Positions 29,879 through 46,496 of a DNA stretch of 64,000 bases are shown here, piece after piece. The DNA is from an uncultured Gemmatimonadota bacterium (GTDB lineage: Bacteria > JAAXHH01). The position numbers and the translations under genes are program-made. The stretch lies in assembly GCA_951812955.1 (NCBI GenBank), contig OX638340.1, positions 2,560,001-2,624,000 of the forward strand, in the 5' to 3' direction. How positions within the stretch are numbered: the stretch's first letter is position 1; every line of letters starts with the position of its first letter. The notes under the pieces are model-generated. The model ran no database searches. It was not told the origin of the DNA and was given only the letters and a program-made list of their open reading frames with translations.

Positions 29879-30802
29879 TCAACGAGTATTCGAGGTGATC
29901 GGGGTAGCGAAGCCTTCCCAAATCCCTCGATGGAGCGCGCCCAGGTGGCCCCACCTGCGACGGATGACCAAGATAGCCGCCGACCGAAGATAACGATACA
30001 GAAAAAGGTAAGGCAGGAACGCGAACAGAAACTGCGGAAGCGGCACGTGTTTTCTCGCAAACAGAATCCTGCTGCGTATCATGTGACGCATATAGAATGG
30101 ACTGTTGAAACCGGCCGTCCGTGACCCCTTGTGGTGGACAACGGCCTTTGGCTCCAAAAGCAATCTATATCCGGCTTCCCGCACCTTCATTCCCCAGTCG
30201 AAGTCGTCGAAATAGCAAAAATAATCTTCGTCCATCAGTCCGACCTTCTCCAGGACAGCGCGCTTGACGAGGAGTGCAGTTCCCGTGATGTACGGCATCT
30301 CGGTCGAGGAATCGAACTGCCCCCTGTCCTCTTCCCCGTGACCCAGAAGAAACCCCTGCGCCAGCCACGGGATGGTGCGTGTACCTGCCGAGTCGAGCAC
30401 GCGTTCCTCTCCATACTTGTAGATCTTCGGTCCGGCCATGCCTATATCGCTGGAGCGTTCCGCCGCTCGAACAAGGTTGGCCAATACGTCTGGCTCCACG
30501 ACGGTGTCGTTGTTCAGCAGGAACACGTAATCGGCGTCTTTTGAAAGGGCATGGCGCATGCCCTGGTTGCTACCACGGACGAATCCCCTGTTTTCGGCGT
30601 TACGAATCAGCGTCAAAGGGAGGTTTTCACGCCCCCACCGCTCGATGGCATCAGGCGAGCCGTCTGTCGATCCATTGTCCACAACAATGACCGAAAAGGA
30701 CGGGTAGTCTATACGCGCCAGTGATTCGAGGCACTCCAGCGTATCCGCTTCCCGGTTCCAGTTGAGTATGACGATGGCGACGTGGGGAAGTGATAGACTC
30801 AT
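29879..30802 (-). CDS. GT2 family glycosyltransferase
   Basis: VAIVILNWNREADTLECLESL...VIVVDNGSTDGS...DYVFLLNNDTVV GT2 motifs; 307 aa. Confidence 0.75.
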   Translation of the reverse strand: MSLSLPHVAIVILNWNREADTLECLESLARIDYPSFSVIVVDNGSTDGSPDAIERWGRENLPLTLIRNAENRGFVRGSNQGMRHALSKDADYVFLLNNDTVVEPDVLANLVRAAERSSDIGMAGPKIYKYGEERVLDSAGTRTIPWLAQGFLLGHGEEDRGQFDSSTEMPYITGTALLVKRAVLEKVGLMDEDYFCYFDDFDWGMKVREAGYRLLLEPKAVVHHKGSRTAGFNSPFYMRHMIRSRILFARKHVPLPQFLFAFLPYLFLYRYLRSAAILVIRRRWGHLGALHRGIWEGFATPITSNTR

Positions 30803-30811
30803 AATCCAGGT

Positions 30812-32275
30812 TCAATCCGATGATTGGTGCGGAATGCCCAACTTCCTAATCCAGCCGCGAACGTATTCCTTCTCCGGCTGATCCAGCAACCGGAACGCGT
30901 ACCAGAGGTAGAGCGCCATACCCAGAATCACCAGGGCGACGCTGACCTCGATCCGATCGAAGGTCCACCTGGCCGCGCCGAAGGAGGCTGCTGAAAGGAC
31001 GATCAGGAGAATGTAGGGTTTCCAGGGGAAAAGCCGTCCTACGGTCGTGTCGAGCAGCCGGGCGTACCGGCCCAGATAGTAGATCCATCCGGCGGCGGTT
31101 CCGCACAGGGTGGCGAGTGCCGCGCCCCAGAGGCCGAAGGCCTTGATGAAGACCAGGTTGCCCGCGACGTTGACGATCAGCATGGCGGTCGCTGCCTGGA
31201 CGATGATCGCGTTGCGGTTCAGGGCCCTCGCGAGGACGTCCGGACTGTTGAAGCGGAGCAGGAGGAGCAGCGCGTAGATGCCCAGGACCCGGTGGCCCTC
31301 GAAGTAGGCGTCGGGCAGGATGATGCGGTACAGCACGTCGGAGAAGAGAAAGACGAAGATCCCCGCCGGTATGATGGCGATCATGCCGCAGGTCGAGCAC
31401 TTGTGCCACAGGGCCGCCATGGACGGATGGTCGCCGCCTTCGGCGTACCCCACGTAGGTGGAAAAGAGCACCGACCCGAACACGCTCATCAGGATGCCGG
31501 CGATGGGCAGTTCGATGGCCGATACGCTGTAGATCGCGAAGCTGGATGCGCCCAGGAAGGCGCTGATCATGATCTTGTCCAGGCTCCCGTTGACGAACGG
31601 AATGAACCCGGCGATACCCAGTCCCAGGGCGTAACGGTACTGGCCCTTGTTGTCGATACTCCGCACCCGGAAGGACAGCAGCTTCCTGTTGAGCAGGACG
31701 AGTCCGTAGAGTAGGGACTGAAAGGCCTCCAGGAGCACGATCAGGACGATGAGTTCGAAAACGGCCGTAATCAGCCCCGAAAACAGCGCGCCGGCGATGG
31801 CCGCGATGCGCAGCAGGTACTGAAACACGCGAAGACCGCTGGCCGCGGCGGTGTGTTCAGTCCCCACCAGGGCGTTGTGTGCGGCCATGTTTACGAATAA
31901 AAACAGGGCGATCAGGAGATAGGCGCCGATCTCCCGTAGATAGGGTCCCAGTTCCGTGTGAACGAGCAGGTAGGGCTTGATGAGAAGATGGAACAGCAGG
32001 AGGAGGGCCAGGAAGATCACCGCACAACTGGCCAGCGTGTTTCCCACGTATCTGCGTGCGTCCGCCGCGTATTTCCCCGATATGAAGTAGAAGACGCTCT
32101 CGATCAGCCCGGCGGCGAACAGGTACGCGAATCCGGCGGTCAGAATGCCGTACCTGTAAGGCGCCAGGTATTCCGGATCGAAGAAATGGGCGACGACGAT
32201 CGACTGGAGTACCTGGAGCGCGCTCGCACCGAGCAGCGCGGTATAGAGTATGACCGCCGCGTTTCGTTTAGACAT
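30812..32275 (-). CDS. polysaccharide/oligosaccharide flippase, MOP superfamily (Wzx-like)
   Basis: 487 aa with about 12-14 hydrophobic segments; Wzx-like N-terminal organization; operon context with GT genes. Confidence 0.6.
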   Translation of the reverse strand: MSKRNAAVILYTALLGASALQVLQSIVVAHFFDPEYLAPYRYGILTAGFAYLFAAGLIESVFYFISGKYAADARRYVGNTLASCAVIFLALLLLFHLLIKPYLLVHTELGPYLREIGAYLLIALFLFVNMAAHNALVGTEHTAAASGLRVFQYLLRIAAIAGALFSGLITAVFELIVLIVLLEAFQSLLYGLVLLNRKLLSFRVRSIDNKGQYRYALGLGIAGFIPFVNGSLDKIMISAFLGASSFAIYSVSAIELPIAGILMSVFGSVLFSTYVGYAEGGDHPSMAALWHKCSTCGMIAIIPAGIFVFLFSDVLYRIILPDAYFEGHRVLGIYALLLLLRFNSPDVLARALNRNAIIVQAATAMLIVNVAGNLVFIKAFGLWGAALATLCGTAAGWIYYLGRYARLLDTTVGRLFPWKPYILLIVLSAASFGAARWTFDRIEVSVALVILGMALYLWYAFRLLDQPEKEYVRGWIRKLGIPHQSSD

Positions 32276-32313
32276 GGTCCCGTCAGGCGGTGGACCTGCA
32301 CCGGCGGTAAGGC

Positions 32314-33696
32314 TCAGACCCCGTCCCTCAGTATCTCCGCGACGGCGGCGACGGCGCGGTCCGCCTCGTCGAGCGTGTTATAGATATGTGGGGAAAGCCG
32401 GACGTTGGGCCCCATGCCCGCGCCGGCCACATGGTACGTGTCGTAGAGCTTTGCGAAGACCTTGCGCGGGTCGAGATCACCTGGTTTGAAGATGACCACG
32501 CCGCCGGAGAGCGCGGGGTCCATGGACGTGGAGAGTGTCACGCCGGGCAGTTCGGTAAGGCCTTCCTTGATGGCCGTGGCCACCTGCCGCATGCGGGCCT
32601 CCACGCGGTCCGGTCCGATCTTCTCGTGGAAATCGACCCCCCGGCCCGTGGCCGTCAGCGCGGCGTCGTCCCGCTGGCCGAGAACTTCGTACTTTCGGGC
32701 GCTATCCACGTCGTCCCGCCATCCGGCGCTCACGATACTGGGCCAGACGGCGTCCTGGCTGTCTTTCCGGACGTACAGCACGCCGACTTCCTTAGGCCCC
32801 ATGAACCACTTGTGGGCGCTTCCGGAGTACGCGTCGCAGCCCATGTCGGCGAGATCGATCTTCAGGGCCCCGAAACTCTGGGCGCCGTCGACGAGGGAAA
32901 ACACGCCCCGTTCCCGCGCCGTCGCACAGAGCTGCCTGGCCGGCATGGAAAGTCCCGTCGTGTTGGACACGTGGGTGAAGGACATCACCTTCGTCGCCGG
33001 GGTGTACGCCCGTTCGAAGGCATCGATGATTTCGTCCTCGCCGCCTGGAATCAAGGGAACCGACACGTAGTTGATCTTAAATCCGTAACGTCTGGACTTG
33101 ACCTCCCACGCCGATTTGTTCGAGGGATGGTTCAGGTCGGACAGGAGCACCTCGTCACCCGTCTGGAGGTGGTAACCGGAACTGATGGCGTTGTTGGCTT
33201 CGCTCGTGTTCCGCACCAGTGCGATTTCATCGGGATGAGCACCCAGGAGCCGCGCCATCTTCTCGCGGGTATCCTCCCGGATCTGCCGGTATTTGATCCT
33301 GTTCTGGAAGGACGCGTCGTAATCCAGGTCGCGGGTATACTTGAAGACCGCTTCCATCACGGGAAAGGGTGACGGGCAAAGGTTGGCGGCGTTCATCAGG
33401 GCCAGGTTGTCCCGGAGGAGGAACTGGTTCCGGACCGCGTGCCAGTACCGTTCGTCGCCGGGGTCTGTGCCGGAGACGGCCGTGTCCAGGTCCTGTGGAG
33501 GCGAAGCGGCGGTGGAGGTGCCGTAACCGGCGACGAGGGCGCCGCCCGCGGCGATACCGCCGGCCAGCCGTTTCATGAACGATCGGCGGGATTCCTGCCA
33601 CGCCGACTCTGGAATACTCTCGATTTTCAATTCGTCCTGGATCATCCTTAAGCCTCCGGATGTGAGGGATAGGGACGCCGCGGAGCGGGATCCCAT
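32314..33696 (-). CDS. class V (fold type I) PLP-dependent aminotransferase/desulfurase-like enzyme with predicted Tat signal peptide
   Basis: Twin-arginine motif SRRSFMKRLAGGIAAGGALVAG near the N-terminus; PLP-lysine motif SGSAHKWFMGP; isopenicillin-N-epimerase/cysteine desulfurase-like blocks. Confidence 0.65.
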   Translation of the reverse strand: MGSRSAASLSLTSGGLRMIQDELKIESIPESAWQESRRSFMKRLAGGIAAGGALVAGYGTSTAASPPQDLDTAVSGTDPGDERYWHAVRNQFLLRDNLALMNAANLCPSPFPVMEAVFKYTRDLDYDASFQNRIKYRQIREDTREKMARLLGAHPDEIALVRNTSEANNAISSGYHLQTGDEVLLSDLNHPSNKSAWEVKSRRYGFKINYVSVPLIPGGEDEIIDAFERAYTPATKVMSFTHVSNTTGLSMPARQLCATARERGVFSLVDGAQSFGALKIDLADMGCDAYSGSAHKWFMGPKEVGVLYVRKDSQDAVWPSIVSAGWRDDVDSARKYEVLGQRDDAALTATGRGVDFHEKIGPDRVEARMRQVATAIKEGLTELPGVTLSTSMDPALSGGVVIFKPGDLDPRKVFAKLYDTYHVAGAGMGPNVRLSPHIYNTLDEADRAVAAVAEILRDGV

Positions 33697-33714
33697 CGCT
33701 AGAAATCCACTTGG

Positions 33715-34572
33715 CTAGAAATCCACCGCAATTCCGAGGTGGGCTGTAATGAGATCGGTGGTCGACTTGGTTATGTTGAGTTCGGCCGTACCCGACCTGC
33801 GGACGATGTCGCCCCGCTTCAGGTAGTCGGCCTCGGACCCGTCATGGTAGCGCATCCTGACATCCAGGGATACGGACCGCACGGTGCGGTTCTGCGACGT
33901 CCGGTCTTCGCCGGCTCCCCACACCTCGATCAGCACCCCGCCGCCCACACCCTTGGTAAATGCGAAATCATCGAGGTTCGTGGAACTGGCGATCTCCTCT
34001 CCGCTGAGACGGGGAAGGTTCTCGATCGCCGTACTCGTGAAAAGGTAGTGGAAGCCCACGACGCCTTCTACGTAGAAACGCAGTGGGGCGGTGGTACCGG
34101 TCATCAGACGAAGAAAGGCGTTCATCGAAAAGATGTTGTTCTCGGTGACCACGTCGACGAGGACGTCGGGGATGGTAAGGCTGAATTGCTCGGTGCGCCG
34201 CTCGTGGCCGTAGATCATGTAACCCAGGTCTAGGCCAATCACGGCCGGTGTACGGGGGATTATGTAGCCCACGAACCCGGACACGCCGATCCCCGGGTTC
34301 TTGACATTGTCGCCGAATTCGCCCGTCGGAAATCCGCCGAGGATGCCGATCCCGGTGATAACGACGGGGGGCACGTCCGCGGTTTCCCCTTCCTGCGCGT
34401 TGGCCGGCGCCGGACGCGCCAGGAGTACCAGTCCGACAAGGGCCGCTATGAACGTGGGATAGGTTGCGCGTCGAGTTATTCGGCTAAATATCCGGCGGAA
34501 AATGCGCTGCATTGGGAAGGTGTGTATTCGAGGTTGTGATTTATGCATGGCAGTTCGGGCCTTCCTGATCAA
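33715..34572 (-). CDS. putative outer-membrane beta-barrel protein; start uncertain
   Basis: Signal peptide ending ...LLARPAPANAQ, alternating amphipathic beta-strands, C-terminal ...GIAVDF aromatic terminus typical of OMPs. Confidence 0.35.
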   Translation of the reverse strand: MIRKARTAMHKSQPRIHTFPMQRIFRRIFSRITRRATYPTFIAALVGLVLLARPAPANAQEGETADVPPVVITGIGILGGFPTGEFGDNVKNPGIGVSGFVGYIIPRTPAVIGLDLGYMIYGHERRTEQFSLTIPDVLVDVVTENNIFSMNAFLRLMTGTTAPLRFYVEGVVGFHYLFTSTAIENLPRLSGEEIASSTNLDDFAFTKGVGGGVLIEVWGAGEDRTSQNRTVRSVSLDVRMRYHDGSEADYLKRGDIVRRSGTAELNITKSTTDLITAHLGIAVDF

Positions 34573-34585
34573 CCGCTTGTCGGAC

Positions 34586-35119
34586 TCAGGACGGTAGCTC
34601 TCCGATTTTGGCGAACACGGCGGACCACCGCGTTCGGTGACTGTCCTCTATAAAGTCGGGTACGAATCCCAGGCCGAGATAGGTCCTGATGGCCGGCACG
34701 CGAAAATCATCCGTACCCAGAAAGGCGGCCTGGTAACCATGATCACGCATATAATGAAGCACGGCCAGGGTTACGAGGCGCCCCAATCCCCGCCCCCGGT
34801 GGGCGGGTTTCGCGCATACCATGTGAACCTGCGCGGCGTTGACCCCTTCGGGTGGATTGTCGTAGGCGCAGGCCGTGGCCACGCCCTCCTCGGATTTCGT
34901 TACGAAGAAGCAGCCGTCCGGCAGAAACGGTTCCCGGCCGGTCACTTCCTCCCGGCACTTCTCGACGGTCCAGCCCGTGCCGATGCCCGTGTTCATGATC
35001 TCGCACCAGGCTGCTTCGTCGCCGGGCCGGTAGGTCCTCAGCGCATACCCCGCCGGCACGCCGATTCCCGGAAGGTTATTCAGGTCGGGGCGTACCATCC
35101 GAAGCTGACGTTCAGGCAT
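34586..35119 (-). CDS. GNAT family N-acetyltransferase
   Basis: Acetyl-CoA binding motif AHRGRGLGRLVTLAVLHY; 177 aa. Confidence 0.7.
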   Translation of the reverse strand: MPERQLRMVRPDLNNLPGIGVPAGYALRTYRPGDEAAWCEIMNTGIGTGWTVEKCREEVTGREPFLPDGCFFVTKSEEGVATACAYDNPPEGVNAAQVHMVCAKPAHRGRGLGRLVTLAVLHYMRDHGYQAAFLGTDDFRVPAIRTYLGLGFVPDFIEDSHRTRWSAVFAKIGELPS

Positions 35120-35133
35120 GGACGCCCCGTCCT

Positions 35134-35901
35134 CTACACGTCACATCCGACGCTCCGCAGGTGCGCCACCGAATCCGCCACGCGCCGGCAGGTCTCGTCC
35201 TCGTCAAGCGATTCGCCTTCCACGCCTTCGATTTCCATGGTGAAAGGCCCATAGAACCCGTGGCCGTTCAACCGGTCGAAAACCGCCTTGAAATCGACGA
35301 TTCCCACGCCGAAGGTCGGGAAACACCAGGTCTTGTAACTGCCGTCCGTATCCTTGAGATGCATGCTGCCGATGTAGTCGATGACCTTAACCATCTCGTC
35401 GACGTGGTCCACGTCCCGGTTGTAGTAGTGGATGTTGGCCGTGTCGTAATTCACTCGGATGTTGGGGTGATCGACGCCGCGCATGGTCTCCACCGCGACA
35501 GCCGCGTTGGTGATCAGGTCGGGATGGGTTTCCATGCCGATGGTGATCCCGTACTCGGCGGCCTTTATCCCCGCGCGGTGCAACCGCTCGTAGACCACTT
35601 TCTTGTCCAGTTCCCCGGCCTGCACGCTCACGAAGAGCAATCCGGCGCCCAGGGCCGCGGCGGCATCCAGGTGCGGGGTCAGCCGCGCGTCCACGTCGTC
35701 GTGCTCGACTTCCACCGGACACTGCAGACTGCTGGCCGACAGACCGTGACGTTCGAGCCTGGCCTTGACCTCGTCTATCCGGTCCGGCGCGGGCGCGTCG
35801 ATTTCCACGTGATGAACACCGATCGTGGGCAGATGGGCATAGGCGGAATCGCTGAATTTTCCGTAGCTTGCCGTTCGGCACGCAAGCAGGTTGGCGGGCA
35901 T
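35134..35901 (-). CDS. sugar phosphate isomerase/epimerase (xylose isomerase-like TIM barrel)
   Basis: 255 aa; the alpha/beta barrel pattern of the AP endonuclease 2 / xylose isomerase-like family. Confidence 0.6.
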   Translation of the reverse strand: MPANLLACRTASYGKFSDSAYAHLPTIGVHHVEIDAPAPDRIDEVKARLERHGLSASSLQCPVEVEHDDVDARLTPHLDAAAALGAGLLFVSVQAGELDKKVVYERLHRAGIKAAEYGITIGMETHPDLITNAAVAVETMRGVDHPNIRVNYDTANIHYYNRDVDHVDEMVKVIDYIGSMHLKDTDGSYKTWCFPTFGVGIVDFKAVFDRLNGHGFYGPFTMEIEGVEGESLDEDETCRRVADSVAHLRSVGCDV

Positions 35902-35998: not shown

Positions 35999-37474
35999 TC
36001 AGATGCCCCGATTTCCCGCTAACCATTTCATCAGGCCTTCAGCGGGCAATTCGGATTTCAGGATGGGCGTCCGTACGCCCTGGGTCCGCAGCAGGGCTTC
36101 GGCGCCCTGGTAACCGCTGCGCACCGCGCTTTCCATGGTAGCCGGCCAGCCCGTCTGTACCCAGTCGCCGGCGAGGAAGAAATTGGAAAGGGGACTGGAT
36201 GGACCGGGGCGCAGTGCGTCGCAACCGGGGTTGGGCGCGAACGTCGCCCTGCCCTCCTTGACGACGATGGCCTTGAGCAGTTCTGCCTGGCGTACGGCGG
36301 GCAGCAGGGACCTGAGATCTTCCATGGCCTGATCGATGATCATCTGTCGCGGCATTTTCATCCATTCATCGGAAGCACTGACTACGAGTCCGAGATAGGC
36401 TCCGTCGTTTTCCATGGCGTTGGTCCCGTCGTTTTCCACGGAGTTGGCTCCGGAGTGCCGATTGGACTGGTTGAATATCCACTGTATCCTCCTTCCGATC
36501 ACCGCGGCGTAGTCCAGTTCCGTCACGGGCCGGTCGAACCAGACGTGGACGGCCGTGATGGGAGAAACCGACAGCCCGGCAAGCATCGCGAAGTAGGGAT
36601 TCGAGGCTTGGCTTTGCGGCAGCAGCCGGCACAAAACATCGAATGGCAGGGCCGAAAGGTATGCCCCGGCCTCGACGGTCGAACCGTCCTGCAGCGAGAT
36701 GGAAGCCACCTTGCCGCCGTGGACGGCAATGCCGGTAACGCCCCGGTTGAACACGACGCGGCCGCCCCGCCGTTCGATGTAATCTATGCACGGCGCGTAC
36801 AGGTCTCCCAGCGGAACGGCGGGCAGCCCCACCTCGTACCCTCGGCGATTGATCAGAAAGGCCCGAACGGCCGTCCCGATTCCGTAATCGGCATCGATGT
36901 CGTCCAGTTCATCGTTGAGCGCACTGATTAGAAAGGGTTTCCAGAAGGCTTCGATGGCCCGCTTCGTTGCGCCGTGGGCTAGAAGCCAGGCAGACATGGA
37001 AACCGGAGACGGTGCTTCGGCGGCCTGATGTGTTTCCGGATAGCCGGTATTCCGTGATCTCATGACGTGGCGGACCATGCCGGCCACGGTGCGGACGATC
37101 GACAGCTTGTCCCGGATTCCCATCGTTTTAAGCCGGAGGAACGATGGAAGCAGGTGCAGGGGCGCGGGGAGACCCGAGGGCCCGATGACCGAAACGCGGT
37201 TGGACTCGTCGATGAATGGAATGGTCTCGTGAAAGTCGATATGGTTCGCGACGCCGAGACGGTCGTAGAAGTCCAGGAGGTTAACACAGCAGCCCAGGAG
37301 CACGTGCTGGCAGTTGTCCACCCGCTCGCCGCTTGACGGGTGTATGAAGGAGGTGGCGCGGCCGCCCAGGATTGGACGTCTTTCGTACAGTTCGACCTCG
37401 AAACCGGCATCGGCCAGCGCAACCGCGCCGGCCAGTCCAGCCAGCCCGCCACCGATTACGATTACCTGGCTCAT
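35999..37474 (-). CDS. hpnE: hydroxysqualene dehydroxylase (FAD-dependent amine-oxidase fold); start at MSQVIVIGGG, overlapping the hpnD stop by 4 nt
   Basis: FAD dinucleotide-binding VIVIGGGLAGLAGAVALADAGFEVELYERRPILGGRA; phytoene-desaturase-like length; directly downstream of two squalene/phytoene-synthase-family genes. Confidence 0.7.
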   Translation of the reverse strand: MSQVIVIGGGLAGLAGAVALADAGFEVELYERRPILGGRATSFIHPSSGERVDNCQHVLLGCCVNLLDFYDRLGVANHIDFHETIPFIDESNRVSVIGPSGLPAPLHLLPSFLRLKTMGIRDKLSIVRTVAGMVRHVMRSRNTGYPETHQAAEAPSPVSMSAWLLAHGATKRAIEAFWKPFLISALNDELDDIDADYGIGTAVRAFLINRRGYEVGLPAVPLGDLYAPCIDYIERRGGRVVFNRGVTGIAVHGGKVASISLQDGSTVEAGAYLSALPFDVLCRLLPQSQASNPYFAMLAGLSVSPITAVHVWFDRPVTELDYAAVIGRRIQWIFNQSNRHSGANSVENDGTNAMENDGAYLGLVVSASDEWMKMPRQMIIDQAMEDLRSLLPAVRQAELLKAIVVKEGRATFAPNPGCDALRPGPSSPLSNFFLAGDWVQTGWPATMESAVRSGYQGAEALLRTQGVRTPILKSELPAEGLMKWLAGNRGI

Positions 37475-38406
37475 ACGCGCTTTCGGATCAGCGCCCGGGC
37501 CGTGATGGAGATTTTCTTCCATGGGGACAGGCCGATGCGCTGGCTATACACGTCGTACTGGCGACGGGGGATTTCTTCAAGGCACGCCCGGTAGATGCCG
37601 ATCATGGCCGCCAGACACGCCCTGCTTGAGAACTGAACCTTCGGAAGGAGCGGCAGCGCTGCGTCGTAGTAGCTTCTGGCGCGTTCCACCTGGAATTCCA
37701 TCAGTCGCCGGAACGAATCGTCTAAAAGTCCGTTCCGCAGACGTTCCTCCGGGTACCCGAAGGCGTCAAGGTCCTCCTGCGGCAGGTAGATACGGCCCAT
37801 CCCCGCGTCCTCCCTCAGGTCGCGCAGTATATTTGTCAGCTGAAAGGCGATGCCACAGGACTCGGCGTGTTTTTTGGCTTCCGCGCCATTGAATCCGAAG
37901 ATGTGTATGCACACCAGTCCGACGGCGGAAGCCACGCGGTAGCAGTACTGGTAAAGTTCTTCGAAGGTGGCGTAACGCGTCACCGTAAGGTCCATTTGCG
38001 CGCCGTCGATAATGGCGTCGAAGTACGCTCTCGGGATGTCGTATCTCCCCACCGTGTCCCTGAATGCCGGCAACAGCCCGCGGACGTCGGGCGGTGTTTC
38101 GCCATAGGCGTCGGCCGGTGGTCCGTCATATGCGTCGGGCGGTGGTCCGTCATAGGCGCGGTCCAGGGACTCGCGGCAGGCGTTCAACCGGTTTTCCTTG
38201 TCCGCCTCCCCGGCCTCCTCGTCGACGATGTCGTCGCAGTAGCGCATGAAGGCGTACACGGCGCACATGGCCCGTCGCCGTTCAGCCGGCAGGACGATAA
38301 AGGAATAGTAGAAGTTCTTAGCCCTCGATTTCGCGATTTCGCGGCAGAAATCATAGGAGCGCTTCAACGATTCCGGATCGGCAGATTGTTTTTTCACAGG
38401 GTTCAT
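37471..38406 (-). CDS. hpnD: presqualene diphosphate synthase (squalene/phytoene synthase family) with an in-frame proline-rich insertion
   Basis: Trans-isoprenyl diphosphate synthase head-to-head motifs (YSFIVLPAERRRAMCAVYAFMRYCDDIVDE, second Asp-rich motif). Insertion AYDGPPPDAYDGPPADAYGETPPDV. Confidence 0.75.
   Translation of the reverse strand: MNPVKKQSADPESLKRSYDFCREIAKSRAKNFYYSFIVLPAERRRAMCAVYAFMRYCDDIVDEEAGEADKENRLNACRESLDRAYDGPPPDAYDGPPADAYGETPPDVRGLLPAFRDTVGRYDIPRAYFDAIIDGAQMDLTVTRYATFEELYQYCYRVASAVGLVCIHIFGFNGAEAKKHAESCGIAFQLTNILRDLREDAGMGRIYLPQEDLDAFGYPEERLRNGLLDDSFRRLMEFQVERARSYYDAALPLLPKVQFSSRACLAAMIGIYRACLEEIPRRQYDVYSQRIGLSPWKKISITARALIRKRV
38086..38157. repeat. 24-nt tandem repeat x3 inside hpnD (gtcggccggtggtccgtcatatgc and variants) encoding a DAYDGPP(P/A) repeat on the minus strand
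   Basis: Direct reading. Confidence 0.85.
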
Positions 38407-38475
38407 GACAACGGCGTTCCATCGTTACGTACAACGAGCACGGTTCGACGAGTACGGTTCGACGCGCACGACCCA

Positions 38476-39435
38476 CTAAGGGGTCGCGGACGGTCCGGTC
38501 CGGTTCCAGATCCGTTTCAGTGCGTATTTCACAAACAGGCTGGTCTTTCGGGCGGGCGACAGGGTGGGCCGACTGGACAGCACGTCGTAACGCCGTCTTT
38601 CGATCTGGTCGAGCAGGGCGGAGCCACAGCGGTTGAACAGTTCGATGTCCAGCCGGACCCGCCCGTCCAACATCCCGCACAACCCGAGCCCCTCATCGAA
38701 CAGCGCTCGCGTCCTGTTCACCTGGTACGCCATCAGTCTCCTGAAACGCTCGTCGACGACCCCGGCCTCGAGGTCCGCCTCGGTGTAATGGTACCGATCC
38801 AGGTCCTCCTGGGGCAAGTAGATCCTGCCTTTTTCCAGGTCCACCCTGACGTCCTGCCAGAAGTTGGCCAGCTGGAGCGCGGTACACGTAGCGTCGGAAA
38901 GGACCTGGCGTTCATTGTCCCGGTGGCCGCACAGGTAGAGCACGAGGTGGCCCACCGGATTGGCGGAGTACCGACAGTATTCGAGCACATCCGCGTAGGT
39001 CCTGTAACGCGTTACGACCTGGTCTTGCCGGAACGCGGTCAGCAAGTCTCGAAACGGGGTTATGGGTATCTCGAATCGGTCGATCGTCTCCCGGAGGGCG
39101 ATGAATACCGGATGCCGGGCGCTACCGTCGTAACAGGCCTGCAACTCGGCGTCCCACCAATCGAGCAGTTCCAGGGAAAGGCCGGTATCGCCGGTTTCGT
39201 CGGCGAGGTCGTCGGACCACCGGCAGTAGGCGTAGACATGGTAGAAGTGCTGCCGCAGCGCGGTGGGCAGGAACCGGGAAACGACAATGAAATTCTCGTA
39301 GTGCTGGCGTGCGAGGTGGCTGCAGTACCGGGTAGCGGACGCCAGGGAGGCGTCGCCGGCGCCGGGCAGCGCGTCGAGGGCGAGGTGATCGAACCGGCGC
39401 ATGGCTTCAGGCAGGTAGTCGGGTAGCTGGGACAT
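38476..39435 (-). CDS. hpnC: hydroxysqualene synthase (squalene/phytoene synthase family)
   Basis: ENFIVVSRFLPTALRQHFYHVYAYCRWSDDLADE and downstream Asp-rich motif; 319 aa; first gene of the hpnCDE trio. Confidence 0.75.
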   Translation of the reverse strand: MSQLPDYLPEAMRRFDHLALDALPGAGDASLASATRYCSHLARQHYENFIVVSRFLPTALRQHFYHVYAYCRWSDDLADETGDTGLSLELLDWWDAELQACYDGSARHPVFIALRETIDRFEIPITPFRDLLTAFRQDQVVTRYRTYADVLEYCRYSANPVGHLVLYLCGHRDNERQVLSDATCTALQLANFWQDVRVDLEKGRIYLPQEDLDRYHYTEADLEAGVVDERFRRLMAYQVNRTRALFDEGLGLCGMLDGRVRLDIELFNRCGSALLDQIERRRYDVLSSRPTLSPARKTSLFVKYALKRIWNRTGPSATP

Positions 39436-39495
39436 GGCCGGTTCGCGTACCCCTCGTTCTCGTTCCGGCCATGGTTCAGCCGGGATTACGCCGCT

Positions 39496-40143
39496 CTATC
39501 CGCCGCTGCAGGCGAATTCCAGTACGAGTTCCTCTTCGAGACGGTATTCGATGAGGTCCTTGATTGTGGCGATCTTCAGATGATGCTCTTCGGCGATTTC
39601 GATCAACCGGGGAAGACGGGCCATGGAGCCGTCCACATCCAGCACCTCGCACAGGACGCCCGCGGGGTAAAGGCCGGCCAGCCTCATCAGGTCGACCGTG
39701 GCCTCGGTGTGTCCGTCCCTTTCCAGCACGCCTCCGTCCCGTGCCTGCAACGGGAAGAGATGTCCCGGCCGTTCGAAGTCTTCCGGCGCCGTATCCGGGC
39801 TCACGAACAACTGGGCGCTGATCGCCCTGTCATGGGCGGAAATGCCGGATGTCACGCCGTTTACGGCATCTACGGACACCGTGAAGGGCGTGTCCGCGAT
39901 CGACGTCTTTCCGTTGACCATGATCGGAATATCCAGCTCTTCAAGCCGCTGCTTCGTGGTGGGCAGACAGATCAGTCCCCGTCCATGCCTCGCCATGAAG
40001 TTGATGATTTCGGGCGTGACTCTCTCGGCGGATACCATGAAGTCGCCCTCGTTCTCGCGGTTTTCGTCGTCGATGACGATCAGTACACGTCCCGCCCTGA
40101 CTTCTTCCACGGCTTCGGGAATGGTACAGAAATGGGATAACAT
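39496..40143 (-). CDS. ribB: 3,4-dihydroxy-2-butanone 4-phosphate synthase
   Basis: RVLIVIDDENRENEGDFMVSAERVTPEIINFMARHGRGLICLP is the DHBP synthase signature; 215 aa (no GTP cyclohydrolase II domain). Confidence 0.85.
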   Translation of the reverse strand: MLSHFCTIPEAVEEVRAGRVLIVIDDENRENEGDFMVSAERVTPEIINFMARHGRGLICLPTTKQRLEELDIPIMVNGKTSIADTPFTVSVDAVNGVTSGISAHDRAISAQLFVSPDTAPEDFERPGHLFPLQARDGGVLERDGHTEATVDLMRLAGLYPAGVLCEVLDVDGSMARLPRLIEIAEEHHLKIATIKDLIEYRLEEELVLEFACSGG

Positions 40144-40350
40144 GCTCCTACCCCCCTTTTCTCGGGTTTAATAAAACATGAACGATACGGTCTCACAATC
40201 GGATTCGCAACCTGGTGGAAGATTAGACTTATGCTCATAGGGGGATTATATTCATTACTGGTATGGAATGCATGAGGTCCCAGTGAGTATTCTGTGAGCA
40301 ATGTGTGAATACTTCGATTTTCGCTACGAAATTCATCCACTGAGCCCCGA

Positions 40351-43104
40351 ATGACGCAACAGACCGCCGCCAAAGGCTTCCGATTCGACGACTTTGTGCT
40401 GGACGTCCAGAACCGCCAGGTTCGACGGAAAGATTCCGTGCTGCCCTTGAGTTCCAGGTATTTCGACGTATTGGTGCTGCTGGTATCCAATGCGGGGCAG
40501 TTGGTGGAGAAAAACCGCATCTTCGACGAAGTCTGGGAAGACGTGATCGTCAGCGATACGGCGCTGACCCAGTGTATCAAGTCGATCCGAAAACAGTTGA
40601 AGGACGACGCGTCGAACCCCAGATACGTCAAAACGGTGCCCAAACACGGATACGTCTTCATCGGCGACGCGGTGGAGATCCCCGAAGAACTTTCCGCGCC
40701 GTCCGTTCAAGGCAAGCCGCCCCGTCCGTACAAGTTCCTCGACTACTATACCGAAAACGACCAGGGCCTGTTCTTCGGCCGCGAGGAGGAGATCGAGAAC
40801 ATCTGCTCCCGCATCCTTGCCCGGCGCTCGTTTCTCCTCTACGGCCGTTCCGGTGTCGGTAAGAGTTCGATTCTACGAGCCGGCGTTATCCCCCGGTTGC
40901 ACGGCCAGGGACATAAAGCGTGTATCATCCGGAGTTTTACCGACCCGTTGCAGCACATGCAACGCATGGTCCGGCGGCTCGTCACCGGTAACGGCGAGGG
41001 CGACGTTGATCCGGACGGTGATGCTCTCGGGGACTTGCTTCACCGCCGATGGTCCGATTCATCGTCCCGGATCGTCGTCATGCTGGACCAGTTCGAAGAG
41101 TTTTTTCTCCTGCTCGATGACGGGGGCCGGCAGGCGTTTATCGATGAACTCGGTGCGATCATGGAGGACGACGAGCTGCCGTTGCAGTTCGTATTCGTGA
41201 TGCGTGAGGACATGCTGGCGGAGATGAGCCGACTCAAGCCGGTGGTACCGGAGATCTTCCACCATGAGTGCCGGCTCGGCCGACTGACGCCCGAACAGGC
41301 CGCCCGGGCCATAACGGGTCCTGCGTGGCGGGTAGGATGCCGGTTTGAAGACATGCTCGTCGACCGCCTGTTGGAGGATCTCTCCGACCAGGACTCTGTC
41401 GACCCGCCCCACCTGCAGATCGTGTGCGACACGCTGTACGATCAGCGCGATGAGAGAAACCTGATCACGGAATCGGCCTATGACCGTCTGGGCGGCGCTT
41501 CACAGATCCTGGCCGACTACCTCTCCCGGGTGCTCCGCCGGTTTTCAGCGGCCGACCTGTCCGTGGTGCAGCAGGTGCTTCTGGCGCTCATTTCCGCGGA
41601 CGAACGGCTCATCGTGGTGCGGGAGGCCGAATTGCTTTCGCGAATCCGGACCGGCGACCGGTACGACGACAATGCCCTAGAAAAACTGCTCGGCGAACTG
41701 GTTGACGCCCGTATCGTCAGGCGTCGAAACCAGGAAGGTGAAGGATGGCTTGAACTCGCCCACGAATGCTTGATTCCGGAGGTGTCCCGCTGGCTGACCA
41801 ATAGCGTTTACGAAGCAAAACAGGCCCGCAGCCTGCTCGAGCGGTCGGTGGAGAATTACCGTACCTACCAGCTCATCATGGACCGTGAAAGTCTGGATCT
41901 GCTTTCGCCCTACCTGGAAGAAATCGGGGTTTCCGGCCATGAAGCGTACCTGCTTTGCATCAGTCTGCTCAACAGGGACCGGCCGGTGCCGGGCTGGCTG
42001 GTTGAAAGGGTGCCGGACGCGCTGAACGTGATCCTGGATGCCACGTACAACGATCGCCAGGAAGTACGCCAGCGGGCGGTGGAGTCCTCCCGGCCCGTGC
42101 GCTGCGCGGCGCTGAACAACCGGCTGAGACACCTTGCGTTGCGGGATCACGAGCTGAAGGTACGCAGGGCGGCCAGCATCGAGCTGGCGGACTGGTTCGG
42201 CTCGGCCGTGGAATCGATTCTGACCCGTCCCACGGGCAACGAGTCCGTGAGCCGCCTGCAGCGCGCGGTCAGCCTGGCGTTTCTGAGGGAACAGAACCGT
42301 TCATTCAAACTTTCCCGGCTGTACCGCGTTATGGTGATGGTCGGTTTCATACTGATGCGCCTGCAACAGGGCGGGATCGACATCATGCAACAGGGGATCG
42401 GCGGAACATTCGGCGGCGCCGTGTCCGGCCTGCTTGGCGGGCTTCTCCTGGGAACCGCACTCGCCGCGGCCGGTTCCGGCCTGCCGTCGGAAGCCCTCTC
42501 ACCCATTTTCGTCCTGGCGGGCCTGGGCCTGTTCGGCGGCGTTTTCGGCGGCGCGGGCGTATCCTTCGGCATGGTCGCGCTGCGGCGCGTATCGAGGATT
42601 TACAGCCGATGGCTCGGCGTATTGGGCGGCGCGCTGGGCGGCGGCCTGGTAGGCGCCGCATTCAATCTCTTCAGTTCCGATACCCTGGAAACCCTGTTCG
42701 GCCGACATCCCGCGGGTCTTACCGGTGGCCTCGAAGGCGCCCTGATCGGGACGGGGGTAGCCCTTGGTCCGGTCGTCACGTATTACCTGGCCGGGCGGTC
42801 CGGGCAGTGGCGAAGCTTTCTCAACATCGTCTTCGGCGCACTGGGAGGCATGATCGCCAGTATCGTCCTGACCGTGATGGGAGGCAGCATGTTCACGGCC
42901 AGCCTGGAGACGCTGCGGCAGTCCTTCGATGCGTCGCAGATACGGCTCGAAACCATCGCGACGATCTTCGGAGAAGGCGAATTCGGCCGCACCACACAGG
43001 TCGCCCTGGGCGCCCTGGAGGGACTGCTCTTCGGTGGCGGCGTTTCGGCCGGCATCGAAACTTTCACCCGCTCGAGGGAGCGGGTCGAGAGACGGTACGA
43101 GTAA
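40351..43104 (+). CDS. multidomain signalling protein: N-terminal OmpR/CadC-type winged-helix DNA-binding domain, STAND-like P-loop NTPase, helical (HEAT-like) repeats, C-terminal glycine-zipper multi-pass membrane domain
   Basis: wHTH block FRFDDFVLDVQNRQVRRKDSVLPLSSRYFDVLVLLVSNAGQLVEKNRIFDEVW...KTVPKHGYVF. hhGRExE motif FFGREEEIENI preceding Walker A LLYGRSGVGKSS. Walker B IVVMLDQFEEFF. HEAT-like LRHLALRDHELKVRRAASIELADW. The last ~270 aa are a run of Gly/Ala/Leu-rich hydrophobic helices (GGTFGGAVSGLLGGLLLGTALAAAG...). Confidence 0.6.
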   Translation: MTQQTAAKGFRFDDFVLDVQNRQVRRKDSVLPLSSRYFDVLVLLVSNAGQLVEKNRIFDEVWEDVIVSDTALTQCIKSIRKQLKDDASNPRYVKTVPKHGYVFIGDAVEIPEELSAPSVQGKPPRPYKFLDYYTENDQGLFFGREEEIENICSRILARRSFLLYGRSGVGKSSILRAGVIPRLHGQGHKACIIRSFTDPLQHMQRMVRRLVTGNGEGDVDPDGDALGDLLHRRWSDSSSRIVVMLDQFEEFFLLLDDGGRQAFIDELGAIMEDDELPLQFVFVMREDMLAEMSRLKPVVPEIFHHECRLGRLTPEQAARAITGPAWRVGCRFEDMLVDRLLEDLSDQDSVDPPHLQIVCDTLYDQRDERNLITESAYDRLGGASQILADYLSRVLRRFSAADLSVVQQVLLALISADERLIVVREAELLSRIRTGDRYDDNALEKLLGELVDARIVRRRNQEGEGWLELAHECLIPEVSRWLTNSVYEAKQARSLLERSVENYRTYQLIMDRESLDLLSPYLEEIGVSGHEAYLLCISLLNRDRPVPGWLVERVPDALNVILDATYNDRQEVRQRAVESSRPVRCAALNNRLRHLALRDHELKVRRAASIELADWFGSAVESILTRPTGNESVSRLQRAVSLAFLREQNRSFKLSRLYRVMVMVGFILMRLQQGGIDIMQQGIGGTFGGAVSGLLGGLLLGTALAAAGSGLPSEALSPIFVLAGLGLFGGVFGGAGVSFGMVALRRVSRIYSRWLGVLGGALGGGLVGAAFNLFSSDTLETLFGRHPAGLTGGLEGALIGTGVALGPVVTYYLAGRSGQWRSFLNIVFGALGGMIASIVLTVMGGSMFTASLETLRQSFDASQIRLETIATIFGEGEFGRTTQVALGALEGLLFGGGVSAGIETFTRSRERVERRYE

Positions 43105-43175
43105 AGCGGATCGGCGGATGGTGGGTAGGAGGATGGCACCGTAAGAGACAGCTTCGAGGATTGTGCATGGATTCG

Positions 43176-43275
43176 CACGTCGCGCCCGCGCGAGAACGAA
43201 TGGATAAACCGTGAGACCTGGATACGTGCGTCACGGCCACGCGAAAAGGAATGGATGAACCGTGGAGAACCGGAA
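43176..43275. repeat. imperfect ~35-nt direct repeat x2 (gcgcgagaacgaatggataaaccgtgagacc / acgcgaaaaggaatggatgaaccgtggagaacc) between the regulator gene and thiL
   Basis: Direct reading. Confidence 0.7.
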
Positions 43276-44308: not shown

Positions 44309-44614
44309 CTAGACTTCTATTTCTACGGCATCGCCGGTCACCCGGACCGGGAAGCAGGTGAGATTCTCGTAGGCCGGCGGCGAAAGCACGTCACCCGTAG
44401 TCACGTCAAAAGACGCGCCGTGGAAGGGACACCAGAGATCGGTGCCGTCCAGTTCCCCTTCGCTCAGGGGCGCGCCCATGTGGGGGCAGAAATTATCGGC
44501 GGCATAGTACTTCCCATCCACATTGCACAGGACGATCTCTTTCCCATCGATCGAGACCATTTTCATCTTGCCCGGACTCAATTCATCCAGGTCCGCCGCC
44601 TTGACGTATCCCAT
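44309..44614 (-). CDS. Rieske [2Fe-2S] domain protein (NirD-like small ferredoxin)
   Basis: CPHMGAPLS ... CPFHGASFD Rieske CxH...CxxH boxes; 101 aa. Confidence 0.75.
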   Translation of the reverse strand: MGYVKAADLDELSPGKMKMVSIDGKEIVLCNVDGKYYAADNFCPHMGAPLSEGELDGTDLWCPFHGASFDVTTGDVLSPPAYENLTCFPVRVTGDAVEIEV

Positions 44615-44753: not shown

Positions 44754-46496
44754 TCAGCCTGGTATGATGATTCGTTGGCCGATCCTCAACCGGTTGGCCT
44801 GTACATCGGGGTTCGCCCGCATAAGGGCCGCTACGGTAACCTTGAAGACCCGCGCGATACGTGATAGCGTATCCCCCGAGCGGATGTCGTAGGTCACCGG
44901 ACTGCCGACCGTTCCCCTTCCGCCGATCCCGTTCCCAGTAAGGCGAAGCACCTGGCCGGGGCGGATGATGTCTCCCCGCAACCCGTTCGACTGCTTTAGC
45001 GCGGTAACGGATGTCCCGTAATACCGGGCGATGCGGGTCAGTGTGTCGCCGCGCCGCACGGTATGCGAAGTAGCGTTCTTCGGTGTACCGTACGAAGGCC
45101 CCTGGCCTACCCATGTCTGGTTATTGTAGCTGCGCCCGGGCACGCGGAGCATCTGGCCAATGCGGATCAGGCTGCCCCGTATCCGGTTCATGCTCCGGAT
45201 TCTGCTGACCGACGTCCGGAATCTGCGGGCGATATGGCCGAGGGTATCGCCTCGCCGCACGCGGTACCTGCTTACCTCGGGAGGGGGTCTGAAATTCGAC
45301 TCCGGCAGCTCGTCGAGACTGCCGAGCAGGGTCGAGCCTGCGCCGAGGGGCACGCGCAGCGCGTAACCGGTGGGCGGCGTCACGCCGTAACGAATGTCGG
45401 TATTCAGGGCCTTGAGATCGTCCTGCGGCATGTCCAGCATTTCGGCGACGTGCTGCAGCGTGACCGACTTGTCGAGAAGCACCTCTTCGAAGAGGTGGGG
45501 ATGATGGGTCTCCGGCCATTCGACGCCGTATTTCTCGGCGTTCTCGATGATATGCACCACCGCGAGGAATTTGGGTATGTAGTTCCGGGTCTCCCTGGGC
45601 AGCCGCATTTTCCAGTAGTCCCGGTTCCCCGTCCGGTTGATCTCGCGGAGTACGCGATACTCGCCGCAGTTGTATGCCGCGAGGGCGAGAAACCAGTCGT
45701 CGAACATGCCGTACAGGTCCTCCAGGTAGGCGAGTGCGGCCGGTGTGGCCTTGTGGGGGTCAAAGCGGTCGTCTACCCAACCGGATCGGCGGAGTCCGTA
45801 CCGCTTGCCGGTATCGAAGATGAATTGCCACATGCCCGCCGCGGCCGCCCATGAGTACGCCCTGGGCTTGAAGCCGCTTTCGACGATCGGAAGCCACTGA
45901 AGCTCTCCAGGCATTCCGCGGGCGGCGAGCTCCTCACGGATCATGGGTGTGTATCGCCCGGACCGCTGGTACGCGGCCTTGAGTATGTCCAGGCTCCTGC
46001 CCTTGAGAAACTGATTGATTTGCAGGGTGACGCGGCGGTTGAGTTCTCTGGGAATCGAACCCCTGACTTCGGCGGCCGCGCGGTGTCTGTCCTGGATGCG
46101 GTCCACCAGCAGGCCGAGTTGCCTGAGCAGGTCGGCCTGCGCGGGAGTCGCGGCGTGTTTCTGGTCGTCGCTCAGGAGGATGAGCAGCCCGAGCACTTCG
46201 TCGACCGCGTCGCGCGCGGACGTGGTATCGGAACGCTCCAGCGCCGCGAGCGCCGCGTCATAGCGCAGCCTGGCATCGGCGAGAAGACGATCCGGATCCT
46301 GTGTCACCAGGGAGTCGGCCAGGGTGACGTGATCGAGGGTAAGATCCTGACCCGGCATTTGCTCCACCGCGACGGCCGTTCCGGTGGTGTCCGCCGTCTC
46401 GGGAGAGGCCGTGGCGCGCGAGCCCGGTTCAAGGGACCGGTGTCCGGCGCAGCCGGCGAGGATAACAAGGCCTATGAGCGGGAGGTATCTTATCAT
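44754..46496 (-). CDS. mltD: membrane-bound lytic murein transglycosylase D-like (SLT domain plus three C-terminal LysM domains)
   Basis: SLT catalytic region (...GMWQFIFDTGKRYGL...AYNCGEYRV) and three LysM repeats (YRVRRGDTLGHIARRF, HTVRRGDTLTRIARYYG, YDIRSGDTLSRIARVFK); lipoprotein-like N-terminus. Confidence 0.8.
   Translation of the reverse strand: MIRYLPLIGLVILAGCAGHRSLEPGSRATASPETADTTGTAVAVEQMPGQDLTLDHVTLADSLVTQDPDRLLADARLRYDAALAALERSDTTSARDAVDEVLGLLILLSDDQKHAATPAQADLLRQLGLLVDRIQDRHRAAAEVRGSIPRELNRRVTLQINQFLKGRSLDILKAAYQRSGRYTPMIREELAARGMPGELQWLPIVESGFKPRAYSWAAAAGMWQFIFDTGKRYGLRRSGWVDDRFDPHKATPAALAYLEDLYGMFDDWFLALAAYNCGEYRVLREINRTGNRDYWKMRLPRETRNYIPKFLAVVHIIENAEKYGVEWPETHHPHLFEEVLLDKSVTLQHVAEMLDMPQDDLKALNTDIRYGVTPPTGYALRVPLGAGSTLLGSLDELPESNFRPPPEVSRYRVRRGDTLGHIARRFRTSVSRIRSMNRIRGSLIRIGQMLRVPGRSYNNQTWVGQGPSYGTPKNATSHTVRRGDTLTRIARYYGTSVTALKQSNGLRGDIIRPGQVLRLTGNGIGGRGTVGSPVTYDIRSGDTLSRIARVFKVTVAALMRANPDVQANRLRIGQRIIIPG

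Follow-up and report, generated by a model that had tools for sequence, protein, structure and literature searches.

A 64,000-nucleotide stretch of DNA from an uncultured Gemmatimonadota bacterium (contig OX638340.1, positions 2,560,001 to 2,624,000; referred to here as the window) carries on its forward strand an open reading frame (ORF) at 40351-43104 whose product, here called T, belongs to a previously undescribed and widespread family of bacterial regulators with a new membrane domain. T joins a winged helix-turn-helix (wHTH) DNA-binding head, a nucleoside triphosphatase (NTPase) of the nSTAND1 family, an arm of HEAT-like repeats and a glycine-rich C-terminal module that is predicted to cross the membrane about six times. 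Two well-known signaling designs, tethered regulators of the ToxR/CadC type and STAND transcription factors, have so far been treated as separate, with the latter taken to be soluble; this family merges them via the unannotated membrane domain. We favor, with a probability of roughly 0.6, the reading that T is a membrane-integrated, nucleotide-gated one-component regulator that binds an array of RTGAG repeats and controls both itself and divergently transcribed membrane-lipid genes.

Architecture of T

The reading frame of T is unbroken over 917 amino acids in the ORF list of the window, and 78 full-length homologues align colinearly with it; for this reason T is not two genes joined by a frameshift. 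A first-pass annotation, made from the sequence without database searches, had described one 917-aa ORF of four modules in an architecture that it did not recognize, and this description is borne out. Pfam and the structural models recover the four modules in that order, with Trans_reg_C at the N-terminus and nSTAND1 (PF20703) at aa 126-501, and the same four-module protein recurs across phyla at 99% coverage and ~50% identity in at least 173 species-level genomes. Literature searches (nSTAND1; STAND with wHTH and transmembrane (TM) segments; ToxR/CadC with STAND; uppS regulators) returned nothing on the architecture of T, its membrane module, the repeat array or a uppS regulator of such a type. 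The full-length AlphaFold model has a mean predicted local distance difference test score (pLDDT) of 77.9, and a search for repeats inside the ORF gave just short GC-rich ones that reflect a GGxxGG coding periodicity. The features of the protein are the following.

40351..43104, + strand: complete T ORF, 917 aa, ATG start; wHTH, nSTAND1, HEAT-like repeats and predicted six-TM module
40351..40680, + strand: OmpR/ToxR/CadC-type winged-helix DNA-binding domain, aa 1-110; recognition helix at ~aa 67-83 (VSDTALTQCIKSIRKQL)
40681..40725, + strand: variable low-confidence linker, aa 111-125; ~20% identity among distant homologues, pLDDT <50 at aa 112-120
40726..41853, + strand: nSTAND1 NTPase module, aa 126-501; PF20703 E = 3.2e-62, invariant motifs, fold matches
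Within the NTPase module: GRExE motif, aa 141-147
40843-40869, + strand: Walker A, aa 165-173
41074-41100, + strand: Walker B, aa 242-250
41854..42315, + strand: HEAT-like alpha-helical repeats, aa 502-655; all-helical solenoid in the model
42316..43101, + strand: Gly-rich membrane module, aa 656-917; no Pfam or NCBIfam match, no significant solved homologue
aa 656-673: module helix H1, interfacial
aa 675-707, 712-747 and 754-783: predicted TM helices H2, H3 and H4
aa 793-813, 819-842 and 880-916: predicted TM helices H5, H6 and H9
aa 848-858 and 867-872: amphipathic helices of the module

An OmpR/CadC-type wHTH had been assigned to aa 1-110, and both Pfam and structural matches to ToxR and CadC agree with this assignment. 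Trans_reg_C (PF00486) matches aa 31-103 with E = 7.8e-18 and 64.8 bits against a cut-off of 26.2, and the best NCBIfam matches of the head are CadC and HilA. Foldseek searches with the AlphaFold model reveal a resemblance to ToxR (8b4b; TM-score 0.83, 33% identity) and TM-scores of 0.80-0.85 to the DNA-binding domains of ToxR, CadC and RstA, and CadC (5ju7) is also a profile match of the head at E = 5.8e-17.

The NTPase of T is a true nSTAND1 member, which confirms the earlier call of a STAND-type P-loop NTPase. The PF20703 model scores 211.8 bits against a cut-off of 27.1 and is covered from position 1 to 369 of 379, and three motifs are invariant in 78 sequences, namely the GRExE motif FFGREEE (F141, G143, R144 and E147), the Walker A motif GxxGxGKS (G165, R166, S167, G168, x, G170, K171, S172 and S173) and the Walker B motif hhhhDxxE (D246, Q247, F248 and E249). 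In Foldseek, the NTPase part of the model matches the folds of Cdc6/ORC, CED-4, Avs4/5 and ZAR1. STAND proteins carry a C-terminal arm of superstructure-forming repeats, and T has such an arm: the model shows a helical solenoid, designed HEAT-like alphaRep proteins are matched by the family profile at positions 557-651 with E values down to 1.5e-8, and several T homologues have precomputed HEAT_2 hits. The HEAT/ARM-like repeats of the first-pass annotation are real, but they extend over ~150 aa (aa 502-655) rather than ~270 aa because the nSTAND1 model itself reaches aa 501.

The C-terminal membrane module

Glycine accounts for 20% of aa 656-917, and five charge-free runs of 20-36 aa are present in this module, whereas no such run exceeds 14 aa in the preceding 655 residues of T. 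Family-wide, the module contains 4.96 charge-free runs of at least 18 aa versus 0.22 in the rest of the protein. TM-like 19-residue windows are likewise confined to the module, where the best apparent insertion energy is +0.2 kcal/mol, whereas all of aa 1-640 lies at or above +7.1. When the module is modeled alone from a 95-sequence alignment, the resulting structure has nine helices, a pLDDT of 92.9 and a predicted TM-score of 0.88. The charge of the loops alternates across the family: the segment before H1, the H1/H2, H3/H4 and H5/H6 loops and the C-terminal tail are rich in lysine and arginine, whereas the H2/H3 and H4/H5 loops are acidic or neutral. This alternation fits a cytoplasmic location of both ends, with H2-H6 and H9 as the six TM helices and H1 lying at the interface on the cytoplasmic side. 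Such an N-in/C-in topology is what a cytoplasmic wHTH and NTPase require. The predicted protein has about six hydrophobic helices joined by short loops, and no extracytoplasmic segment longer than ~40 aa. Insertion into the membrane is predicted rather than proven, although strongly indicated; the module would constitute a new domain family formed by a bundle of about six TM helices. The initial description of hydrophobic Gly-rich helices with 6-8 TM segments is supported at the lower end of its range.

Two glutamates, Glu795 and Glu890, are conserved, each in an xEGxxxG motif, and are nearly invariant across the long and short forms of the family described below. They fall in two homologous units, 750-815 and 817-906 (HHalign probability 94%, E = 1.5e-7), each of which has two TM helices with an amphipathic helix between them and carries one xEGxxxG motif. 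A strict three-fold repeat is not claimed since the similarity of unit 1 to units 2 and 3 is weak (E ~1e-3, probability <20%). No model in Pfam or NCBIfam (E <= 1) or in PADLOC covers aa 656-917, and the Pfam Gly-zipper_* and GlsB/YeaQ/YmgE families are unmatched there at E <= 1. Comparison with the PDB yielded nothing significant either by sequence or by Foldseek (best E = 0.37), and for this reason no fold is assigned beyond "membrane helical bundle". The resemblance to the four-helix proteins of the Tim17/Tim22/Tim23-NDUFA11-OEP16 group and to mitochondrial-carrier-type bundles is at the level of fold, with 7-17% identity, E >= 0.37 and a TM-score of at most 0.38 over the whole module, and homology to them is not established.

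Long and short forms of the family

The four-module proteins are found in Gemmatimonadota/Latescibacterota (the closest, at 80-99%), Zixibacteria, Blastocatellia, KSB1 and Calditrichota, and each species genome had a single copy among the loci returned. Among distant members, identity is highest in the head (~64%), followed by the NTPase (56%), the membrane module (47%), the arm (43%) and the linker at aa 111-125 (20%). An exhaustive search with a profile of the membrane module alone retrieved 407 cluster representatives, comprising ~900-aa proteins and a large class of ~330-390 aa. Trans_reg_C is the sole Pfam domain in 64 of the 68 apparently complete short hits (320-566 aa), which makes the module a dedicated partner of this wHTH subfamily. 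These short forms of ~360 aa, in which the wHTH is fused directly to the module, are present in cultured Rubrivirga and Fodinibius, in metagenome-assembled genomes (MAGs) of Rhodothermales and in others. They are without the NTPase, the HEAT-like arm and the interfacial helix H1; their membrane module is homologous to that of T, and their wHTH is 63% identical to the head of T with a nearly identical recognition helix. T is a "long form", with the NTPase and arm inserted between the head and the membrane module. The family is widespread in under-studied phyla (Gemmatimonadota/Latescibacterota, Acidobacteriota, KSB1, Calditrichota and Zixibacteria), and its short forms reach the cultured Rhodothermota and Balneolota. 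Both forms are annotated in the source records merely as "winged helix-turn-helix domain-containing protein".

A conserved repeat array upstream of T

The spacer between ribB and T is 207 bp long with a GC fraction of ~0.49 versus ~0.62, which bears out the AT-rich divergent promoter region of ~200 bp noted originally, and it contains the elements listed here.

40272..40309, + strand: predicted operator of four direct repeats 11 bp apart (ATGAG 40272, GTGAG 40283, GTGAG 40294, GTGAA 40305)
40223..40252, + strand: sigma-70-like promoter candidate for T, TTAGAC-N17-TATATT; consensus scan, both hexamers invariant in 20 genomes; presumptive function, which would put the array in the transcribed leader or proximal region
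40191..40199, - strand: conserved inverted half-site, TCTCACAAT on the + strand and ATTGTGAGA on the - strand, ~50 nt upstream of the ribB start; invariant block in alignment A6; putative function

The three-repeat pattern occurs once in the window, where 0.03 occurrences are expected by chance, and the array is nearly invariant in 20 related genomes (alignment A6), in which variation is seen directly 3' of the array and in the portion of the spacer next to ribB. Counts from the terminator and promoter scans were at or below chance, and the promoter-like site gained weight through conservation alone. The array is also present upstream of distant homologues. Motif-free counts of 6-mers in the 300 nt upstream of 57 such genes identified TGTGAG in 37 regions (2.4 expected) and GTGAGA in 40 (3.8 expected), and a three-repeat score of at least 12 was reached in 50 of 63 loci compared with 2.8% of random windows. 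The consensus in distant loci is ..GAGAAAA-ATGAGC-N5-GTGAGAAAGTT-GTGAGAAAATCA, mostly positioned 13-45 nt before the start codon. Short-form genes in metagenomes, scanned with alignment A7, which is tighter than the very diverse A4, are preceded by the same array with 9/11/11 spacing (for example GTGAGCGGC-ATGAGCAACTC-CTGAGGTTTCG-CTGAAAAATGG), and a score of at least 11 was obtained for 40 of 76 regions versus 0.4% of random windows.

A scan of 1.07 Mb from 86 loci, covering 9-15 kb per genome, returned 81 arrays on the strand of T and none on the other. Sixty-six of these are directly upstream of T, and 15 further high-scoring arrays lie 0.6-2.6 kb upstream, mostly separated from T by a gene on the opposite strand. 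At least 13 of the 15 distal arrays sit just upstream of DUF4352-uppS, uppS or family 39 where a minus-strand gene intervenes. Since distal arrays that are cut off from T by another gene are not part of its leader, they favor an effect on the divergent genes that is exerted through the DNA. The divergent starts faced by arrays are those of ribB (16), DUF4352 (14), uppS (12) and a B12-radical-SAM gene (12), at a median distance of ~100 nt.

Operators of OmpR/PhoB/ToxR-family wHTH proteins are typically direct repeats spaced 10-11 bp. The array of three or four RTGAG repeats is best read as the probable operator of T itself because its one-helical-turn spacing tracks the shared wHTH across phyla and architectures, and its location between the candidate promoter and the start codon suggests that T may repress its own transcription. 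Rfam contains no RNA family that matches the window at the gathering threshold or either flanking spacer at E <= 1, including no FMN (flavin mononucleotide) riboswitch in the 207-nt spacer before ribB and no TPP (thiamine pyrophosphate) element before thiL.

Variation around the array was also observed. In locus L014 (A6, columns 236-277) an insertion 3' of the array re-duplicates the last repeat (GTATGAATA), and in L007 (~5990-6060) an insertion in the same place holds a tandemly repeated unit (TTCACCTGAACCC, twice); these insertions suggest that the region 3' of the array expands by local duplication. Two arrays each are found in L026, L040, L045, L048, L057, L058, L064, L067, L069, L070 and L075, with a perfect array before the DUF4352/uppS string and a T-proximal array whose middle repeat is degenerate (TGAT).

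Divergent partners of T

T lies between ribB (upstream, opposite strand) and thiL (downstream), as annotated at the outset; however, contrary to that annotation, the gene is not isolated but forms part of a conserved divergent unit. The conserved side of T is the upstream, divergent one, and its downstream neighbors are not conserved. In the window the divergent side is occupied by a compact string of genes, in which two gaps measure 60 and 69 nt and one pair of genes overlaps by 52 nt.

35999..40143, - strand: ribB 39496-40143, hpnC 38476-39435, hpnD 37471-38406, hpnE 35999-37522; NCBIfam ribB, HpnC, HpnD and HpnE above cut-offs

The products of hpnC, hpnD and hpnE form the three-enzyme bacterial squalene pathway, and ribB-hpnCDE is a candidate operon that T may regulate in this clade. 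Upstream of T, hpnE is present in 18 close loci and hpnC/D in 16, and the linkage extends to 3 loci at 55-62% identity; the strings are headed by ribB or by a gene for a Zn-dependent alcohol dehydrogenase, followed by hpnC, hpnD and hpnE. In distant loci the partner is uppS (NF011405, E = 3e-103), which was detected in 42 of 59 and is upstream and divergent in 42/42. It is directly adjacent to T in 14 loci and lies behind one to seven ORFs in 28; the intervening ORFs (DUF4352, the B12-radical-SAM gene and small membrane proteins) are on the minus strand in all but two cases. The outer flanks of the uppS loci differ among Blastocatellia, KSB1 and Calditrichota. Farnesyl diphosphate is a substrate of UppS as well as of HpnD, and the recurrent long-form partners are thus branch-point enzymes of isoprenoid membrane lipids. 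By tblastn, uppS and families 6, 12, 23, 24 and 45 are absent from the window.

Short forms have family-45-like genes (28 loci) and family-74/DUF4153-like genes (26 loci) as divergent partners, and no linkage to uppS or hpn was seen in short-form loci. Family 45 is a polytopic membrane protein of ~200 aa with a weak DUF6574 match (short-form loci L081-L166), and family 74 is a polytopic membrane protein of ~380-450 aa with a weak DUF4153 match and a conserved G-F/L-TPNR motif; both are also found near some long forms (L047, L054, L056 and L060). The B12-binding radical-SAM gene located between T and DUF4352/uppS in the two-array loci has weak HpnJ-, BchE- and HpnR-like matches far below cut-offs.

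Comparison with known regulators

T works like the ToxR/CadC receptors and like the AfsR/MalT STAND regulators, and is a member of neither group. As in the ToxR-like receptors (ToxR, CadC, TcpP and VtrA), a cytoplasmic wHTH of the same subfamily is at the N-terminus, a single polypeptide serves for both signal input and DNA output, and membrane tethering and a direct-repeat operator, both predicted in T, are shared. However, those receptors cross the membrane with one TM helix and end in a periplasmic sensor domain, whereas T has ~six predicted TM helices without a sizeable periplasmic domain and places ~530 aa of NTPase and HEAT-like arm between the head and the membrane. With the STAND transcription factors (AfsR/SARP-NB-ARC-TPR, MalT and GutR), T shares the combination of a DNA-binding effector, a STAND NTPase and a C-terminal helical-repeat arm. 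In such regulators ligand binding leads to nucleotide exchange, oligomerization and promoter binding, and the same logic would be expected for T. AfsR, MalT and GutR are soluble, belong to other STAND clades (NB-ARC, MalT) and carry TPR or SUPR arms, in contrast to the nSTAND1 module and polytopic membrane end of T. Moreover, AfsR has a BTAD domain, while Pfam gives no BTAD, NB-ARC or TPR hit in T at E <= 1, and MalT bears a C-terminal LuxR HTH where T has an N-terminal wHTH. The nSTAND1 conflict NTPases belong to the same Pfam family as T, PF20703, and their described members have death-like, EAD or enzymatic effectors and occur in variable counter-invader contexts (Kaur et al., eLife 2021, PMC8195603). 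T differs from these conflict proteins in its wHTH head, its membrane tail, its housekeeping context and its slow evolution.

Model and alternative explanations

How would these parts work together? We propose that the cytoplasmic N-terminal wHTH binds the RTGAG array between the T promoter and start codon, in the spacer shared with the divergent operon, and that the Gly-zipper bundle of ~six TM helices, with both ends in the cytoplasm, anchors T in the inner membrane. This module would also be the most likely sensor of a membrane-carried signal. The nSTAND1 NTPase and HEAT-like arm may then convert the signal into ADP/ATP exchange and oligomerization, by analogy with other STAND proteins, and oligomerization could align several wHTH heads on the repeat array. 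The predicted output is autoregulation together with control of the divergent genes, which would be ribB-hpnCDE (squalene/hopanoid precursor synthesis) in this clade and uppS strings (undecaprenyl-diphosphate synthesis) in most other phyla. The coupling of a membrane signal to transcription, one of two functions suggested by the first-pass annotation, is favored by the best-conserved head, the conserved upstream array and the divergent housekeeping lipid genes.

Several observations weigh against this model. The sole promoter-like site precedes the array, which is also near the start codon, an arrangement easier to reconcile with repression or a leader element than with classical activation of T; the co-transcription of ribB with hpnCDE is assumed from their short gaps only; H1, H4, H5 and H9 are only marginally hydrophobic; and every long-form host is an uncultured MAG. 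In addition, all short forms and some KSB1-type long-form loci have divergent partners other than uppS and hpn, and the isoprenoid link is accordingly lineage-specific rather than universal.

One alternative hypothesis is that T is a regulator whose membrane module serves only as an anchor or oligomerization scaffold, the signal being a ligand in the cytoplasm that the HEAT-like arm and NTPase perceive. In STAND regulators of the MalT/AfsR type it is the C-terminal repeat arm to which the inducer binds, and the arm of T is conserved at ~43%. However, the module is as conserved (47%) as the arm, it is the only candidate sensor in the short form, which is without arm and NTPase, and the near invariance of the membrane-embedded Glu795 and Glu890 in both forms exceeds the needs of a passive anchor; we consider this alternative unlikely. 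A further hypothesis concerns the DNA rather than the protein, namely that the RTGAG array acts within the T mRNA, as an element of the leader RNA or of translation, or else is bound by another factor, and that T targets unlinked genes. The arrays are always sense-oriented, downstream of the predicted promoter and, in many loci, very near the start codon, as such an element would be. Nevertheless, the one-helical-turn periodicity of a 5-bp core is a feature of a DNA face, the array co-occurs with the shared wHTH in long and short forms from different phyla, and most of the 15 distal arrays 0.6-2.6 kb from T are cut off from it by a gene on the opposite strand, so that they cannot belong to a T leader. 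At least 13 of the 15 directly precede divergent starts of uppS, DUF4352 or family 39, which leaves this explanation with rather little probability.

The other function suggested at the outset was that of a STAND conflict protein, in which the membrane module would be a pore-forming or membrane-disrupting effector that activation sets free, and the wHTH a foreign-DNA sensor or accessory regulator. nSTAND1 was defined in predicted counter-invader systems and is also found in sensors linked to diversity-generating retroelements, the NTPase fold resembles those of Avs4/5 and the plant nucleotide-binding leucine-rich-repeat receptors, and Gly-zipper TM modules can form pores. Set against this, no PADLOC family was matched, Pfam detects no enzymatic or death-like effector domain in T, the protein evolves slowly (full-length identity of ~50% across phyla, one copy per species genome in the loci returned), and its neighbors are housekeeping genes (uppS, hpnCDE, ribB, thiL, glgA and trx) without defense-island features. 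Moreover, the wHTH is the most conserved module, the genome of the host itself offers it a conserved, cognate-looking operator, and wHTH, membrane module and operator all persist in the short form, which has no NTPase. A role in conflict is for these reasons disfavored, and we regard it as very improbable.

The model of a membrane-integrated regulator comes with a definite operator prediction, RTGAG direct repeats with 11-bp spacing in the core, and with a small set of predicted targets, among them uppS and the squalene genes. To our knowledge, the transcriptional control of uppS and the sensing of the undecaprenyl-phosphate pool are poorly understood. If the model is true, it would reveal how, in some bacteria, the state of the membrane lipids acts back on the synthesis of isoprenoid lipids, and would add a member to the known sensor domains and to the ways in which a STAND switch can be wired. 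A more specific and tentative hypothesis, which we hold to be possible although doubtful, is that the T family are dedicated sensors of membrane polyprenyl or isoprenoid lipids. The six-TM module, with its conserved intramembrane glutamates, would track the pool of undecaprenyl phosphate, of a farnesyl-diphosphate-derived lipid or of a hopanoid precursor, and ATP-driven STAND oligomerization would let the protein directly set the transcription of uppS, or of hpnCDE in this clade. In that case no transcriptional feedback regulator of carrier-lipid synthesis would have been described before T, nor any STAND transcription factor with a polytopic membrane domain.

Other features of the region

The direct repeat that had been noted 3' of T is present as an imperfect 27-28-nt repeat at 43186-43215 and 43239-43268; it is incidental, not conserved, and part of a hypervariable spacer, and it looks like a decayed duplication of the thiL start region. 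The spacer between T and thiL (43105-43261) is hypervariable among close relatives (L001, L002, L007 and L074), with lineage-specific expansions of short GC-rich units such as the approximately four copies of GTTAGAGGCTGTCGC in L002, and its conserved part is just the ~30 nt before the GTG start of thiL. Downstream of thiL, a Rieske-type [2Fe-2S] ferredoxin-like protein (44309-44614, - strand) and an MltD-like lytic transglycosylase with C-terminal LysM repeats (44754-46496, - strand) are kept in the close clade only. On the other side, beyond hpnE, the minus-strand gene string goes on through 29879-35901 with two unannotated ORFs (284 and 486 aa) and genes for a xylose-isomerase-like TIM-barrel protein, a GNAT acetyltransferase, a class-V aminotransferase and a GT2 glycosyltransferase.

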